Positions 34,634 through 38,617 of a stretch of 64,000 nt of DNA are shown piece by piece. Position 1 is the first letter of the stretch; every line of letters begins with the position of its first letter. Source of the DNA: Candidatus Poseidoniia archaeon (lineage in GTDB: Archaea > Thermoplasmatota > Poseidoniia > MGIII > CG-Epi1); assembly GCA_030754655.1 (NCBI GenBank), contig JASLZX010000003.1, positions 15,449 through 79,448 on the forward strand, read 5' to 3'. Under the pieces are notes generated by a model. The model worked only from the letters and a program-made list of their open reading frames with translations, did not search any database and had not been told where the DNA came from. A program made the position numbers and the translations under genes.

Positions 34634-37600
34634 ATGATGATTTTCATGCGCAAGACCCTCAAATATTCGTTCGCCGTACTAGTGTTTGCATTCCTGCTTT
34701 CACTGGCTGCCTCCGAGGCTTCCGGTGAAGTGGACCTGACGATTACCTCCTTGGACTACACTAATGACTTCGATACCGGAGATCCTGTTACTATCGTCCA
34801 GAGCGGGAAGGATGCTGACACTGTATACAAGTATAATTTTTACGACGATGACAACGATGACTGCGATGAACAGAGGTGTCTCCCCGAGAATTGGTATGCG
34901 AAGAATTTTGACGACGCAATCTGGAGTTCAGGAGCCGCACCCTTCGGCAATAATGACCAGGCCGGCGCCAGTCCGGGCACGATATGGCAAACAGAGGAGG
35001 ATCTGAATGACCACATCGTAATTCGCCATCACTTTACTTACAGTAATGAGTATGATGCAATCAGTGCTACCCTGAACCTGGCCTACAATAACTACTATGT
35101 CGCCTACCTGAACGGGAACCTTATTCGAGACTGCTATTCTTACCAAAACAATAATAATTGTTACCAAGGCGACACTGCATACTGGAACAATGAACTAACC
35201 TATAACGGAGGCTCCCAGTCAGGGCCTAATCAAGATTGGCTAGTCGAAGGTGACAACGTACTTGCCATACTAGGAAGAGACAGCACTTGGGGTGGGGACC
35301 CTAATCAGTGGCTTGATGTCGAGTTCGTGGTCAACGTCCAGTCCTGGAGGGAAAAACCGATTATCCTCGGTGATGACGTGTGGCTGAGGGTGATTACTTC
35401 CAACGTAGGAAACGAAACCGCTGAGAACTTCAACGTCACGCTGGCGGTCGAGGGTGAGGAGCTGGGGAATGCTACCATAACGGAACTGGCACCTAATGCT
35501 ACGGCTGAAAGTGTGTTCTACTGGACTCCGGAGGCGCTCGGAGACTTTAATCTTGTGGCTTTTGCTGATGCTGGGCAAGATGTTGGAGAAAGCGATGAGG
35601 ACAACAATACCCTGAATCGCACAATACACATTGGGTTCTATGCGTACAATATTGCTGTGGAATCAAACCATGTTGTAGGAAATGCTACAGAGATTTTCAG
35701 GTACAATCTAACTGTCACTAACGAAGGCGACGTGGAAGACAATTTCACCCTCTCAGCCTCAGGTATTTTCTACAATTGGGATTGGACCCTTACGCCCAAC
35801 GTACTTCACCTGCAACCCGGAGGGAGCGGGAATGCGACTCTTGAAATAGTTCCGGACAGAGAGACATTGGCTGGGAATTACTCCGTGTTCATGAGTGCCA
35901 GGTCTCAGTACTATAGTGAATTCAGAGAGAACGTAGTCCTGAGTGGCCGGGATAACGAGACAGAATGGTGGTGGGCCCATTCCAATAGCAGTAACACGCG
36001 ACTCTACTATTGCACGGACAATGATGAACCCGACGACCCAGATTATGAATGCGATATTAGCTGGACCGAACTAGACTTCGACTATGATGACAACTGGACC
36101 CTTGACCCGGCACCCTTCGGAGATACCGACATAGGCAATGTAGACAACAACACGGTCTGGCAAGGCAACAGTTACGCCTACTTCCGCCATATATTCACTA
36201 TCGATAATATTTCGGCTTACGAAGGGGGCAGCCTGAGCCTGAATACTGCGGCAAACAACTACGGAACCTACTACCTGAACAGCCAGATAGTGTTCAATGA
36301 CATGCGGCAGGGTCAGGGCCACACCGCGAATTACTGGAACGATGAAACCCTGTTTGGACCCGAACTCTTGCAGGAAGGCGAAAATATCCTGGCATCAGTA
36401 GTCCGGGAAACTGGAAACACCCAGTGGTTTGATGAGGAAGTCGTGGCTGTTTTCTCCCAATCCGCAGCCTGGGATTTCGTTCCGCTACCACTAGAACTGG
36501 AAATGGAGATACTGCCGACCTATAATTTCTCGCTCTCGGCCCCCATTAGCAACAAGCAGATTCCGGACGACACTAACTACACCTTTGAAGTCTGGATTAC
36601 CAATCTAGGAAACATCGGAGATACCTATGAGATGGTAGTCACACTAAACGACACCTACAACTTTACAATCCTTAACTACACCACTACTGAAATGCACAGC
36701 GTTGTTGGAGAAGGTGCAATAGGTTACATTAATGTCACCATGCGCGACCTTATCGAGGAAGACGCGCGTGGCGGTTTCAATGTTACTGTAATTTCGCGCA
36801 ACTCGACCGAACAACTCACTAAATGGATTGAGCTGACTGCAATGCTCTATATCGTGCCTGACACACTGCGTCCTGTTACGGAGGCTATAACAGATCCACT
36901 CGTCAACTCGACCTCGTTCCAGGTAGGGTGGGAAGTAGCCGAATGGTATCGCCTCGACGATGTGCTCGGCAACGACACCTTGGTGGTGACCGTCGAATAC
37001 CGGCGCGACAACGGCAGCGGCAGCTGGGAGGAGTGGCAAGTGTGGCAGGTCTTCACGGCCGAGGACGAGGACAATCCGCTCGGCAGCGGGAGCGGAACCT
37101 TCTCGCTGGGCGAGGACGGTCGCAGCTTCCAGTTCCGGGCAACCGGCCTCGACGATGACGGGCTGTTGGAGGACAAGACGGGACGCAATGACACCGAGAC
37201 GCTGGTCGACACAACCCCGCCAACGGTCGCCGTTTCCAGCGACCCAGCTGGCGCGCTGCTCAGCACCAACTACCTCGAGCTGAGCTGGGAGAGCAGCGCC
37301 AGCGACCTTGCGGGCTACGACCTGCAACATTCGTTTGACGGCGGAGCGTGGGAAACGCTGCTGGCCGACTCGCTCGCGACGCGCTACGACTACTACGTCA
37401 CGGCCGACGGCAGCCACGCCTTCCGCGTCATCGCGAGCGATGACGCGGGCAACCGTGACGTGCCCGACACGCCCCAAATCAGCATGGTCATCGACACCGC
37501 AGCCCCGACGGGGAGGCTCGCGCCGCTGGAGCCGCTGACCGGCGCGCTAGCGGTGACGTTGCTGCCATCGCAGGATAACGCCAGCAGCTACAACCTGAGC

Positions 37601-38617
37601 TATGCGCGGATTGCCGAGGAGCAGCTGCTGACCGCCATCTGGGCGTGGCAGGAGCTCGGCAGCTGGAACTCGACGCAGTCGCACGATTTCGACGTCGTCG
37701 ACGGCTACGCCTACTACTTCCGCTACACACCGGTCGACGCGGCGGGCAATGTCGCCGACCGCGACTCCCTCAGCGCAACTTACAGCGGCGACGGAAACCC
37801 GGGCCAGTCGTTTCCACTGCTGCTCCCCGCTATCATCCTGCAGGGCGACCCGCAGCTCACCGTGCACGCTGGCCTGACGGAACTGGCTCGCAGCAACGCG
37901 CCGGGGATGGTTCTCAGCAACCAATTCTACTACGACGCGGCGACTGCGACCATCCAGTTCGGGAATGGCGCGAGCGGCTACCTGCCGACCGAGGGGGAAT
38001 CTATTACCATCGCCTGGAGCGGCTACGATACTGCGACGCTGGTTGACCGCACCCCGCCCTCCGCCCCGCGCAGCTTCCAGCTGACGCTGGCGCCCGACGG
38101 GAGCGCGCAGATGCGGTTCCTCTATTCTGCCTCGGACGACGTGGTCGAGTATCGCATCATCCGCAAGGATTCGCCCAACGCTACCGGCGACCTGCTCGCG
38201 ACGCTGGCCGCCAGCGAGGGGTACCTGACGCACGTCGACCAGCCGCCGGGCGAACAACTCTGGATTTACCGCGTCGTGGCCGTCGACCGCAGGGGGCTGC
38301 TCTCGCCCGCGGTCGAGGCGACGGTCGACCTGACACCAGCGGTGCAGCCACCGACGGACGGCGACGATGAAGCGGAGCTGCCGCTGATGACGCTGCTGGC
38401 GGGCGCGGCGCTGGTGCTGGGCGGTGGAGCGGCGGCCTGGTGGTTCACCCGGCCGCCGCCCGTGGCCGTCGCGCCGGTGCTGACGAGTGTCGCGTCGCCC
38501 TTCACCGCTGCCGACGAGGGACTTCTTTGCAGCGGGTGCGATACCATCTTCACTCCCGACGAGGGGGAGACGCTACACTGCCCCGGCTGTGGGCAGGTCG
38601 GGCCGCCCCCTTCCTGA
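34634..38617 (+). CDS. giant mosaic surface adhesin-like protein (CARDB-like and Fn3-like repeats, many N-glycosylation sequons, C-terminal TM plus cytoplasmic zinc ribbon)
   Basis: Signal peptide MMIFMRKTLKYSFAVLVFAFLLSLAA; CARDB-like NVTLAVEGEELGNATITELAPNATAESVFYW; Fn3-like segments; TM LPLMTLLAGAALVLGGGAAAWWF; CSGC...CPGC tail; 5' part about 45% GC versus 3' part about 65%. Confidence 0.8.
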   Translation: MMIFMRKTLKYSFAVLVFAFLLSLAASEASGEVDLTITSLDYTNDFDTGDPVTIVQSGKDADTVYKYNFYDDDNDDCDEQRCLPENWYAKNFDDAIWSSGAAPFGNNDQAGASPGTIWQTEEDLNDHIVIRHHFTYSNEYDAISATLNLAYNNYYVAYLNGNLIRDCYSYQNNNNCYQGDTAYWNNELTYNGGSQSGPNQDWLVEGDNVLAILGRDSTWGGDPNQWLDVEFVVNVQSWREKPIILGDDVWLRVITSNVGNETAENFNVTLAVEGEELGNATITELAPNATAESVFYWTPEALGDFNLVAFADAGQDVGESDEDNNTLNRTIHIGFYAYNIAVESNHVVGNATEIFRYNLTVTNEGDVEDNFTLSASGIFYNWDWTLTPNVLHLQPGGSGNATLEIVPDRETLAGNYSVFMSARSQYYSEFRENVVLSGRDNETEWWWAHSNSSNTRLYYCTDNDEPDDPDYECDISWTELDFDYDDNWTLDPAPFGDTDIGNVDNNTVWQGNSYAYFRHIFTIDNISAYEGGSLSLNTAANNYGTYYLNSQIVFNDMRQGQGHTANYWNDETLFGPELLQEGENILASVVRETGNTQWFDEEVVAVFSQSAAWDFVPLPLELEMEILPTYNFSLSAPISNKQIPDDTNYTFEVWITNLGNIGDTYEMVVTLNDTYNFTILNYTTTEMHSVVGEGAIGYINVTMRDLIEEDARGGFNVTVISRNSTEQLTKWIELTAMLYIVPDTLRPVTEAITDPLVNSTSFQVGWEVAEWYRLDDVLGNDTLVVTVEYRRDNGSGSWEEWQVWQVFTAEDEDNPLGSGSGTFSLGEDGRSFQFRATGLDDDGLLEDKTGRNDTETLVDTTPPTVAVSSDPAGALLSTNYLELSWESSASDLAGYDLQHSFDGGAWETLLADSLATRYDYYVTADGSHAFRVIASDDAGNRDVPDTPQISMVIDTAAPTGRLAPLEPLTGALAVTLLPSQDNASSYNLSYARIAEEQLLTAIWAWQELGSWNSTQSHDFDVVDGYAYYFRYTPVDAAGNVADRDSLSATYSGDGNPGQSFPLLLPAIILQGDPQLTVHAGLTELARSNAPGMVLSNQFYYDAATATIQFGNGASGYLPTEGESITIAWSGYDTATLVDRTPPSAPRSFQLTLAPDGSAQMRFLYSASDDVVEYRIIRKDSPNATGDLLATLAASEGYLTHVDQPPGEQLWIYRVVAVDRRGLLSPAVEATVDLTPAVQPPTDGDDEAELPLMTLLAGAALVLGGGAAAWWFTRPPPVAVAPVLTSVASPFTAADEGLLCSGCDTIFTPDEGETLHCPGCGQVGPPPS

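Follow-up and report, generated by a model that had tools for sequence, protein, structure and literature searches.

The abrupt compositional step inside a surface-protein gene, carried by a 64-kb stretch of DNA from a high-GC Candidatus Poseidoniia archaeon (Marine Group II/III, and no haloarchaeon; the stretch is hereafter the window), is in our view best explained by homologous cassette replacement, a process that would operate family-wide and leave the C-terminal part of the gene vertically inherited; we give this reading a probability of about three in four. The promoter-proximal 2.37 kb (codons 1–771, the distal ectodomain) would have evolved in a lower-GC relative, at a GC3 of about 0.5–0.6, and this low-GC allele would have entered the lineage of the window, where genomes have a GC of about 0.65, via homologous recombination. 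One crossover would fall at codon ~772, where the first Fn3 domain is conserved, and the C-terminal parts (stalk, anchor and zinc ribbon) would be resident and transmitted by vertical inheritance. The ectodomain would consist of at least three exchangeable cassettes moving between species and between lineages of very different GC, and residues 291–623 would come in two deeply split types, A and B, of which the window carries A.

The gene product is a type-I membrane surface glycoprotein, whose parts follow one another from the outside inward as a signal peptide, two units each made of a sugar-binding-like jelly roll and CARDB/Ig, then about five Fn3 domains, a TM helix and, last, a zinc ribbon of the form CxxC...CxxC (Table 1). 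Translation probably begins with the ATG at 34646 (M5, 'MRKT...'), as an equivalent MR(K/Q)T opens all relatives. Reading of the promoter region reveals a TATA-like TTATAG at 34601–34606, and alignment of six related loci shows CTTATA(G/T/C)CCCC to be kept, with varying indels. The whole protein contains 199 D+E versus 54 K+R and 32 NxS/T sequons.

Table 1. Coordinates in the window of the surface-protein gene, its predicted domains and neighbouring features
Feature	Position	Strand	Remarks
tRNA Arg	31385-31460		only tRNA near; 3 kb from the gene
MFS transporter gene	33222-34556	minus	neighbour, on the other side of the promoter region
Divergent intergenic/promoter region	34557..34633	+	between the MFS transporter gene and the surface-protein gene
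Putative low-GC recombinant block	34578-36950	+	GC 0.49, GC3 0.56; promoter-proximal region and codons 1-771
Surface-protein ORF	34634..38617	+	1327 aa plus stop
Signal-peptide-like N-terminus	34634..34723	+	hydropathy maximum, core residues 8-27; model helix 11-26
Small N-terminal beta domain (residues 32-70) and acidic Cys loop	34727..34885	+	
Jelly-roll domain 1 (residues ~85-236)	34886..35341	+	like the galactose-binding-like sugar-binding domain of GH2 glycosidases
Two Ig-like domains: CARDB (237-335) and CARDB/NPCBM_assoc-like (336-437)	35342..35944	+	
Jelly-roll domain 2 (residues ~476-612)	36059..36469	+	core of the dimorphic A/B cassette
Ig-like domain 3 (residues ~613-742)	36470..36859	+	model secondary structure; generic Ig matches
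First Fn3-like domain (residues ~745-860)	36866..37213	+	holds the GC3 change point and the tract replaced in L006
Four more Fn3-like beta-sandwich domains, stalk (residues ~861-1235)	37214..38338	+	native composition, GC3 0.84-0.89
Predicted transmembrane helix (residues ~1249-1271)	38378..38446	+	hydropathy; acidic linker before the helix; model confidence low
Predicted cytoplasmic zinc ribbon (residues ~1290-1322)	38501..38599	+	C1299-x2-C1302-x13-C1316-x2-C1319

Most of what an earlier note had read from this DNA was recovered. The acidic run DDDNDDCDEQRC is present at residues 71–82, forming a Cys loop in which C77 and C82 are almost invariant; CARDB in the low-GC part is represented by a match of the Pfam profile PF07705 to residues 235–328 (E = 2.7e-14, above the gathering threshold); the N part is indeed dense in sequons (25 versus 10.7 ± 2.9 in shuffles, a 2.3-fold enrichment); and the C part does contain an array of Fn3-like beta-sandwich domains, recognised by profile or fold, followed by a hydrophobic helix, likewise found in 52 of 55 homologue tails, and the CxxC...CxxC tail. 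In the latter the four cysteines are invariant in alignments of 19 and of 32 sequences, as are F1290, F1306, P1317 and G1320, and the hairpins are modelled at pLDDT 74–80, so that by sequence and modelled fold it appears to be a zinc ribbon, predicted to bind metal, which may dock the protein to a cytoplasmic partner. Its similarity to L32 ribbons is a weak profile similarity only (E about 0.5), and among 1.84 billion representatives a profile of the tail retrieved solely its own family at E < 1e-14. A transmembrane anti-sigma factor of the ZAS type was rejected as an identification, given that the tail reads CxxC-x13-CxxC and has no His motif (HxxxCxxC expected); to our knowledge archaea are without sigma factors.

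The borders of the step were located by maximum-likelihood change points, of which the left one (~34578) falls inside the promoter region and the right one at codon 772, nt 36950, within the first Fn3-like domain and surrounded by a conserved stretch (W766, W771, Y772, G779–T782). The earlier note had placed the switch near 36900, which is close. At the change point the log-likelihood ratio is 71.3, and none of 2000 codon permutations gave more than 11.6; GC is 0.49 in the low-GC block and 0.68 in the rest of the gene. Beyond 36950 the GC3 of the gene is 0.86, the background GC of the window is ~0.65 and the neighbouring genes have a GC3 of 0.78–0.90, making the N part, at 0.56, atypical for its host. 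Amino-acid composition fails to explain the step, because for each of the 18 amino acids that have synonymous codons the N part uses GC-ending codons less often (chi-square 130, p = 4e-30).

An assembly or binning chimera, joining reads of a low-GC and a high-GC organism, deserves a mention since the gene is a known assembler break point (the contigs of six of the homologous loci, L012, L022, L031, L032, L035 and L045, end inside it), though we give it practically no weight. The same step occurs at the same place, with 96–98% nucleotide identity across the junction, in L004 (GCA_030747325.1, a 43.6-kb contig) and L005 (Logan assembly of SRR5007141, a 23.7-kb contig), which come from different projects, and it is also found, with its junction shifted, in the near-identical genome L006 (GCA_036120465.1); moreover, the junction lies in a conserved protein stretch and leaves the reading frame unbroken. 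Misassembly, which the earlier note had named as grounds for abandoning its idea, can therefore be dismissed, as no fewer than three further independent assemblies show the step.

A more serious alternative, although an unlikely one, is that the N-terminal 770 codons are themselves vertical and owe their intermediate GC3 to a local mutational regime or a region-specific constraint, such as selection on codon choice or translation kinetics that helps the jelly-roll/Ig modules to be secreted and to fold. It would account for the leaning of the N part towards intermediate GC3 in high-GC and some low-GC hosts and for the low GC3 of residues 1–290 in almost every high-GC lineage, the single exception being L045 (0.71–0.79). 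However, five members of the same clade whose C parts are 85–92% identical to that of the window (L001, L008 and L050–52) carry versions of residues 291–623 that are only 33–50% identical to it (L001 36% overall) and have a GC3 of 0.79–0.86, a native GC3 that extends over residues 291–700; since these copies and L045 have higher-GC3 versions, the sequence does not of itself require a low GC3, and in the L002 clade the GC3 deficit is almost nil (-0.03). The comparison of strains proposed in the earlier note thus did find the N-terminal module to vary.

Vertical descent of the N part is further contradicted by block phylogenies that clash with those of the flanks and with one another, and by the near-identical cassettes held by distant genomes. 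In block 291–623 the window shares 305 sites only with L003, which belongs to another genus, and 45 only with L001, as against 27 and 469, respectively, in block 874–1327 (Fisher p = 1e-143 between the blocks). Block identity correlates with flank identity at a Spearman coefficient of 0.78 for the C part and of 0.32–0.41 for the N-terminal blocks (0.32 for residues 92–290), and by these measures the C part appears to follow the phylogeny of the flanking genes, from which the N-terminal blocks diverge. The extra similarity of the N part between lineages could partly reflect purifying selection, because across the family its protein sequence is more conserved than that of the C part. Of the earlier proposal that a foreign module was grafted onto a resident anchor, the compositionally foreign low-GC ectodomain, the resident C part and a recombination junction at the step all stand, but the exchange involved a homologous cassette belonging to the same gene.

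The clearest single exchange concerns L006, a 98–100% identical genome in which the sole difference within the gene is a 330-nt patch at the junction. Compared with the window, dS is 0.04–0.075 in the flanks and 0.77 at residues ~740–850; the tract is 93–98% identical at the nucleotide level to L001/L008, and informative sites favour L001/L008 over the window by 60 to 2 inside it and by 41 to 738 outside (p = 1e-61), patterns that identify the patch as a putative short conversion tract copied from the other allele. Segment and flanks are thus incongruent in both tests, at a locus that is the same in all genomes, as is looked for in allelic replacement.

Exchange is not confined to the clade of the window, in which five of eight possible module combinations were found, pointing to free reassortment, and breakpoints recur near residues 250, 610–700 and 750–800. 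L013 and L018 share 88–98% nucleotide identity over residues 251–600, as against 56–62% before and 61–83% after this segment, and their flanking proteins are 73% identical. In L061, with a host GC of 0.34, the C part has a GC3 of 0.19 and residues 1–800 one of 0.37, the latter being 83–98% identical in nucleotides to L060, L062 and L014 (GC 0.41), after which identity falls to 48–61%, the flanks matching at just 55–61%. Judged by these identities, L061 appears to be the mirror image of the window's case in a low-GC genome, with a donor-like lineage at hand.

Another possible source of low-GC cassettes, and in our estimate a very unlikely one, is gene conversion from a paralogous or silent cassette of the same genome, that is, programmed antigenic variation of the kind known from pilE/pilS and the S-layer sap cassettes. 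Conversion tracts as short as about 330 nt would suit such a system, as would the two partial copies present in several MAGs (L008+L022, L009+L032, L040+L041, L029+L043), yet neither blastn nor tblastn detected a second copy, fragment or repeat of the gene within the 64-kb window, and breaks of contigs at the variable cassette account for the double copies. L022, of type A, has the upstream flank and stops at residue 734, and L008, of type B, begins at the gene start; both come from one metagenome, in which the two types of allele therefore coexist, and they are identical at the junction (100% over residues 701–725). Types A and B furthermore share one syntenic locus, with synteny on both flanks.

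The domain plan itself is found at that syntenic locus in ~80 cases, and all full-length homologues (1198–1341 aa, 31–96% identity, host GC 0.33–0.66) agree in domain order and in the tail. In most genomes the order is HAD hydrolase, [MFS], surface-protein gene and enoyl-CoA hydratase, with HAD upstream in 34 loci and ECH downstream in 29; an adjoining ArsR-type HTH gene occurs in the high-GC clade only and is absent from L002/L003. This conservation overturns the earlier suggestion of domain shuffling that created a new architecture, and the non-homologous fusion of a foreign adhesin module to an unrelated TM/zinc-ribbon anchor, for which the sharp compositional step and nothing else speaks, was rejected as extremely improbable, the tail being restricted to its own family. 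Because the architecture is conserved in every full-length homologue, the zinc ribbon is ancestral and family-specific and no product of a graft. A genomic island or mobile element was also rejected, the block ending in the promoter of the gene itself on one side and among conserved codons on the other; no relatives were found on viral contigs.

As regards the origin of the window's cassette, a close donor was not found, the best matches to its N part outside its own clade having 72–80% protein identity and a dS of 0.65 to >3, with synonymous sites near saturation; the transfer into the clade would therefore be old, or the donor lineage unsampled. Within-clade substitutions give no sign of amelioration of the N part toward host GC, as AT->GC and GC->AT per-site rates are equal and imply an equilibrium GC3 of 0.47–0.52, compared with 0.75–0.81 for the C part. 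Such an absence fits continued import from a low-GC allele pool and equally a region-specific compositional regime, and it counts in favour of vertical descent of the N part as well.

The closest precedent is provided by the S-layer glycoprotein genes of Haloferax, which fall into two divergent types in that one genus, both types showing several recombination events inside the gene (Shalev et al. 2018, PMC5867893). The two systems have in common an archaeal, sequon-rich, acidic protein with a signal peptide and a C-terminal membrane anchor, deeply divergent homologous types among close relatives, within-gene recombination and viruses as the proposed driver. They differ in the anchor, which is here a TM helix with a cytoplasmic zinc ribbon and there PGF-CTERM/archaeosortase, and in that exchange takes place here in domain-sized cassettes between lineages differing in GC (0.33–0.66 in the family). 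S-layer features known from the gene alone are present (a hydrophobic N-terminus, the sequons, an acidic Ig-like ectodomain and a TM anchor); no S-layer or PGF-CTERM model in Pfam or NCBIfam matched, and a literature search found no S-layer description for MGII.

In bacterial mosaic surface-antigen genes, e.g., Neisseria porB/tbpB and pneumococcal pspA, exposed segments are also replaced homologously, crossovers fall where the sequence is conserved, co-occurring strains reassort their blocks and compositional or phylogenetic discordance is confined to part of the gene, although the present host is archaeal, planktonic and free-living; the window's mosaic is visible by eye because the GC gap between donor and recipient is far larger. 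Nearer to the host is the proteorhodopsin 'overwrite' in Ca. Poseidoniales, in which a resident single-copy gene was replaced in situ by a transferred homologue (Rinke et al. 2018, PMC6461757). That replacement, in the same archaeal order, involved the whole gene, as opposed to the sub-genic cassettes described here, which leave the membrane-proximal part resident. Archaeal CARDB surface proteins, represented by the structures 3idu (Pyrococcus PF1109) and 2l0d (Methanosarcina MA_4588), are a more distant comparison, as CARDB makes up merely ~100 of the 1327 residues here, and the jelly rolls, Fn3 stalk and zinc-ribbon tail set the protein apart as a separate, unnamed family. The N-terminal sugar-binding and Ig domains of GH2 glycosidases (3gm8, 6d50, 6hpd) offer a fold match to the jelly rolls at 10–14% identity, with no Pfam Glyco_hydro_2_N match and the catalytic TIM barrel missing, and the likeness may be fold-level only.

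Hints at function come from the sugar-binding-like jelly-roll folds and the very acidic, sequon-rich ectodomain, and a surface-binding (adhesin) role is suggested for the gene product. The distal modules may bind glycans or particles and/or act as virus receptors, and swaps may be favoured by diversifying or frequency-dependent selection. A bolder proposal, which we regard as doubtful, is that the family provides the principal S-layer-like envelope glycoprotein and main virus receptor of MGII/III, tied by its zinc ribbon to a cytoplasmic partner, with A/B as a virus-driven trans-lineage balanced polymorphism; the two types would then be maintained by negative frequency-dependent selection, with recombination between genera spreading them over a two-fold range of genomic GC.

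Segment replacement is a familiar evolutionary route for surface proteins, and cassette shuffling is seen here family-wide. No planktonic archaea are more abundant in the surface ocean than the Poseidoniia, which are uncultured; the envelope, attachment structures and virus receptors of these organisms are little known, and the family offers a conserved, single-locus candidate for an exposed surface protein. As the locus breaks metagenome assemblies, apparent 'duplicate' genes can arise in MAGs. The directly documented pair indicates that kilobase-scale homologous recombination links Poseidoniia lineages whose genomic GC differs by as much as about 0.07, and the pattern of cassettes provides a map of the protein, in which the exchangeable jelly-roll/Ig modules would face outward and the Fn3 stalk, TM helix and zinc ribbon would be the parts that co-evolve with the cell.

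The earlier note's description of a surface-protein gene whose GC content steps up from low to high within the ORF was reproduced by a 300-nt sliding profile (0.45–0.53 over approximately 34550–36950, then 0.65–0.72), by maximum likelihood change points and by codon usage. The low-GC block (codons 1–771, hereafter the N part) differs from the rest of the gene (the C part) in GC (0.49 vs 0.68) and in GC3 (0.56 vs 0.86), the window as a whole having a GC of about 0.65 and the syntenic neighbour genes a GC3 of 0.78–0.90, and the change-point statistic was 71.3 against a permutation maximum of 11.6 (n=2000). 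GC-ending codons are rarer in the N part for 18 out of 18 amino acids (chi-square 130, p = 4e-30), the step is therefore one of codon usage and not a by-product of an Asn/Tyr/Ile-rich composition. The CARDB domain, dense sequons, Fn3-like domains, TM helix, CxxC...CxxC tail and acidic run that had been read from the sequence were likewise all found in the ORF. That misassembly could have produced the step, a possibility which the earlier note had allowed for, is directly contradicted by its recurrence in three further assemblies (GCA_030747325.1, the Logan assembly of SRR5007141, and GCA_036120465.1, referred to below as L006).

Features of the window and of the surface-protein gene
Feature	Position	Strand	Remarks
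Second large surface-type protein	13409-17962	minus	1517 aa; PKD, Ig_VWA7, FixG_C and Big_9 domains
GC-poor stretch	29000-31000		GC 0.56-0.58
Class I SAM methyltransferase gene	29682-30503	minus	ORF within the GC-poor stretch
Enoyl-CoA hydratase gene	30519-31370
tRNA-Arg	31385-31460
Change points	34578 and 36950		the second at codon 772
Conserved TTATAG	34601-34606		about 40 nt upstream of the ATG at 34646
Surface-protein gene, longest ORF	34634-38617	+	1327 aa, begins MMIFMRKT
ATG of the surface-protein gene	34646	+	all relatives align from here (MRKT/MRQ); probably the true start
Acidic Cys loop	residues 71-82
W766-W771-Y772-G779NDT782 stretch	residues 766-782		first Fn3 domain; contains the switch at codon 772
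Regulator and pilin genes	38676-40454		ArsR/Phr/SurR-like HTH regulator (219 aa), choice-of-anchor-V-like protein (167 aa), archaeal type IV pilin (166 aa)
T2SSF-like and PilB3-type genes	45372-49755		6 kb further; two T2SSF-like genes, one gene for a PilB3-type ATPase, GC3 0.71-0.75

Homologues were sampled as 55 proteins and as 38 loci each from GTDB species representatives and from metagenomes (designated below by L numbers). The closest proteins (94–96% identity) are annotated as 'CARDB domain-containing protein' and belong to Candidatus Poseidoniia / Thermoplasmatota MAGs. Full-length members of the family (1198–1341 aa) align end to end, with dozens of invariant Trp, Gly and Asp positions and all four tail cysteines conserved in alignments of 19 and 32 sequences, and they occupy one orthologous locus, preceded in 34 loci by a HAD hydrolase and followed in 29 by an enoyl-CoA hydratase, the GC of the host flanks lying between 0.33 and 0.67. 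Given end-to-end homology at a single locus and the invariant cysteines, the joining of ectodomain, TM helix and predicted zinc ribbon is ancestral to the family. De novo fusion is contradicted by this conservation, and the graft onto a resident anchor that the earlier note proposed cannot be read as a new fusion.

A haloarchaeal origin with a Haloquadratum-like donor, suggested by the high GC and the acidic protein, was ruled out, all homologues being from Poseidoniia. One member (P0015) was deposited as 'Candidatus Marinimicrobia bacterium', probably through a mistake in binning the source MAG, since every other member belongs to Poseidoniia. Two longer proteins, P0052 and P0053 (1748 and 1769 aa, with Beta_helix, CARDB, NPCBM_assoc and fn3 domains), have the jelly-roll/Ig region and Fn3 stalk in common with the family and close with a CxxC...CxxC motif; possibly they form a sister family in which the N-terminus is extended.

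Residues 291–623 exist in two deep versions that are only about 30–36% identical: type A (in the window, L002–L007 and L009–L019, among others) and type B (in L001, L008, L050–52 and many MGIII genomes). Both types share one syntenic locus and are interleaved when loci are ordered by the relatedness of their flanking genes. The GC3 of the C part tracks host composition throughout the family, and the difference between N and C parts depends on the lineage: −0.28 to −0.33 in the window clade, −0.11 in the L003 clade, −0.03 in the L002 clade (genome GC 0.57) and 0 to +0.20 in low-GC genomes. On sequence comparison this deficit is shown to be the probable footprint of recombination, because versions with native GC3, sites with incongruent sharing, a short patch at the junction in L006 and reassorted modules are all found.

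The N-terminal module does vary between strains when orthologues are compared, as the earlier note had proposed to do: the C parts of L001, L008 and L050–52 are 85–92% identical to that of the window, while over residues 291–623 identity is only about 36%, at a native GC3 of 0.79–0.86. Residues 1–290 occur in L045 in a version with a GC3 of 0.71–0.79. With such versions present in the same clade, low GC3 is evidently not required by the protein. An amelioration signature, expected in the N part, is absent from both outgroup-polarised and within-clade singleton changes (implied equilibrium GC3 0.47–0.52 in the N part, 0.75–0.81 in the C part). Its absence would be explained by ongoing import out of a pool of low-GC alleles; a regional constraint holding the N part at low GC3 would fit as well, and we consider it unlikely.

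Recombination is also indicated by the informative sites, of which in block 291–623 the window shares 305 only with L003, a locus from another genus, and 45 only with L001, the corresponding numbers in block 874–1327 being 27 and 469 (contrast p = 1e-143). L006 is 98–100% identical to the window over 20 kb, with a dS of 0.04–0.075 in flanking genes and 0.008–0.027 in most of the N part, the exception being residues ~740–850, where dS reaches 0.77. Over these residues L006 has an intermediate GC3 and is 93–98% identical to the L001/L008 allele (informative sites p = 1e-61), so that the junction itself has been shifted in L006 by a conversion of approximately 330 nt between co-circulating alleles. 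Modules reassort freely: in the high-GC clade, five of the eight possible combinations of residues 1–290 (two versions), residues 291–~700 (types A and B) and the first Fn3 domain (two versions) are present.

No donor of the window's own allele was found among the sampled loci, which include no genome between GC 0.44 and 0.55; the closest N parts outside the clade are 72–80% identical and saturated at synonymous sites. Nor is there support for a recent transfer linking the window clade to that of L003 or of L002, as N-part dS (0.65–3) is not below flank dS (0.46–1.5), the sole exception being a modestly lower dS in block 92–290 in comparison with L002. No case of viral carriage of cassettes was found in IMG/VR, and exchange from a silent-cassette system is contradicted by the lack of any silent cassette or paralogue in the 64-kb window.

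Cassette exchange extends across the family. The Spearman correlation between block and flank identity is 0.78 for the C part, falling to 0.65 for residues 624–771, 0.41 for 291–623 and 0.32 for 92–290. Loci L013 and L018, whose flanking proteins are 73% identical, have a nucleotide identity of 56–62% up to residue 250, 88–98% at residues 251–600 and 61–83% beyond. A further case is L061 (Ga0315338_1000127), a 343-kb contig with a host GC of 0.34, a C-part GC3 of 0.19 and a GC3 of 0.37 in residues 1–800, the latter having 83–98% nucleotide identity to genomes of GC 0.41 (L060, L062 and L014, from the same and other metagenomes) that falls to 48–61% beyond residue ~800, with flanks at only 55–61%. 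This locus is a mirror image of the window's GC step. Breakpoints recur near residues 250, 610–700 and 750–800, close to domain borders and in invariant-rich stretches.

Coexistence of alleles in nature is seen in one metagenome, the source of both L022, which has the upstream flank and type A and stops at residue 734, and L008, which has type B and the downstream flank; the two contigs are 100% identical over residues 701–725. Contigs break repeatedly at the surface-protein locus, and four MAGs have apparently two copies (L008+L022, L009+L032, L040+L041 and L029+L043); alleles that coexist and are split between contigs account for the apparent second copy in several MAGs, and L008+L022 at least represents a single locus whose two co-existing alleles form an assembly bubble.

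AlphaFold models built from the family alignment (pLDDT 78.7 for the N part, 80.8 for the C part) place in the N part a signal-peptide-like helix, a small beta domain and a unit that occurs twice, a jelly roll of ~150 aa with Ig-like sandwiches after it; the two jelly rolls are internal duplicates (35% identity, E = 1e-14). In the C part about five Fn3-like domains are strung together, and an acidic linker leads from them to a hydrophobic helix, which a Pro-rich linker connects to the predicted zinc ribbon. With 199 D+E vs 54 K+R the protein is very acidic, and sequons are enriched in both the N part (25 observed vs 10.7 +/- 2.9 in shuffles) and the C part (7 vs 2.5 +/- 1.4). Anatomy, acidity and sequon enrichment are hallmarks of an archaeal surface glycoprotein. 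No whole-protein family model in Pfam or NCBIfam matched, S-layer and PGF-CTERM models included, and Foldseek of the multi-domain N model on the PDB gave only generic Ig-array matches (hydin, alpha-2-macroglobulin, complement).

The predicted zinc ribbon is invariant in the family alignments, and the tail formed by it and the TM helix is family-specific: a word-indexed profile search found only 37–72 aa fragments of the same family, and an exhaustive HMMER search had no hit at E < 1e-14 outside the family, the next hits being generic multi-zinc-ribbon proteins. On these grounds the tail was rejected as a general anchor module of other surface proteins. The ribbon lacks a ZAS-type motif and no conserved partner gene was found among the compared loci, signalling through it is therefore speculation. 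The ArsR-type regulator, the small secreted protein and the type IV pilin downstream, like the T2SSF-like and PilB3-type genes, are confined to the high-GC clade.

Elsewhere in the window, the 1517-aa protein is also very acidic (235 D+E vs 54 K+R), its GC3 likewise falls short of the genomic value (0.53 over the first 100 codons, 0.63–0.83 after), and it has no homology to the surface-protein gene by tblastn. The GC-poor methyltransferase stretch is present in L006, with 29700–30600 unmatched in GCA_030747325.1, and looks like a strain-variable insertion beside the enoyl-CoA hydratase gene and tRNA-Arg. The window clade has this hydratase gene upstream of the surface-protein gene and most Poseidoniia have it directly downstream, which indicates a local rearrangement.

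Bacterial surface-antigen genes can be mosaic and are counted among the nearest phenomena to the mosaic described here. The closest described cases also include the two S-layer glycoprotein types that recombine in Haloferax (PMC5867893) and the proteorhodopsin genes 'overwritten' in situ in Poseidoniales (PMC6461757). Literature searches found no earlier description of this protein or of an MGII S-layer, nor of surface proteins with cytoplasmic zinc-ribbon tails. It is well supported that the mosaic is a new example of a known phenomenon in an uncharacterised family and not a new mechanism. The distal jelly-roll/Ig modules, predicted to be exposed and glycosylated and swapped between lineages, would fit glycan or particle binding and/or virus receptors under diversifying selection. 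Stalk, TM helix and predicted zinc ribbon are inherited with the genome, which would be in keeping with their co-adaptation to the membrane and to a partner in the cytoplasm. Cassette flow is documented between lineages of differing GC, in a family that spans genomic GC from 0.33 to 0.67, and a concrete surface-protein candidate can be named for an uncultured and globally abundant group.
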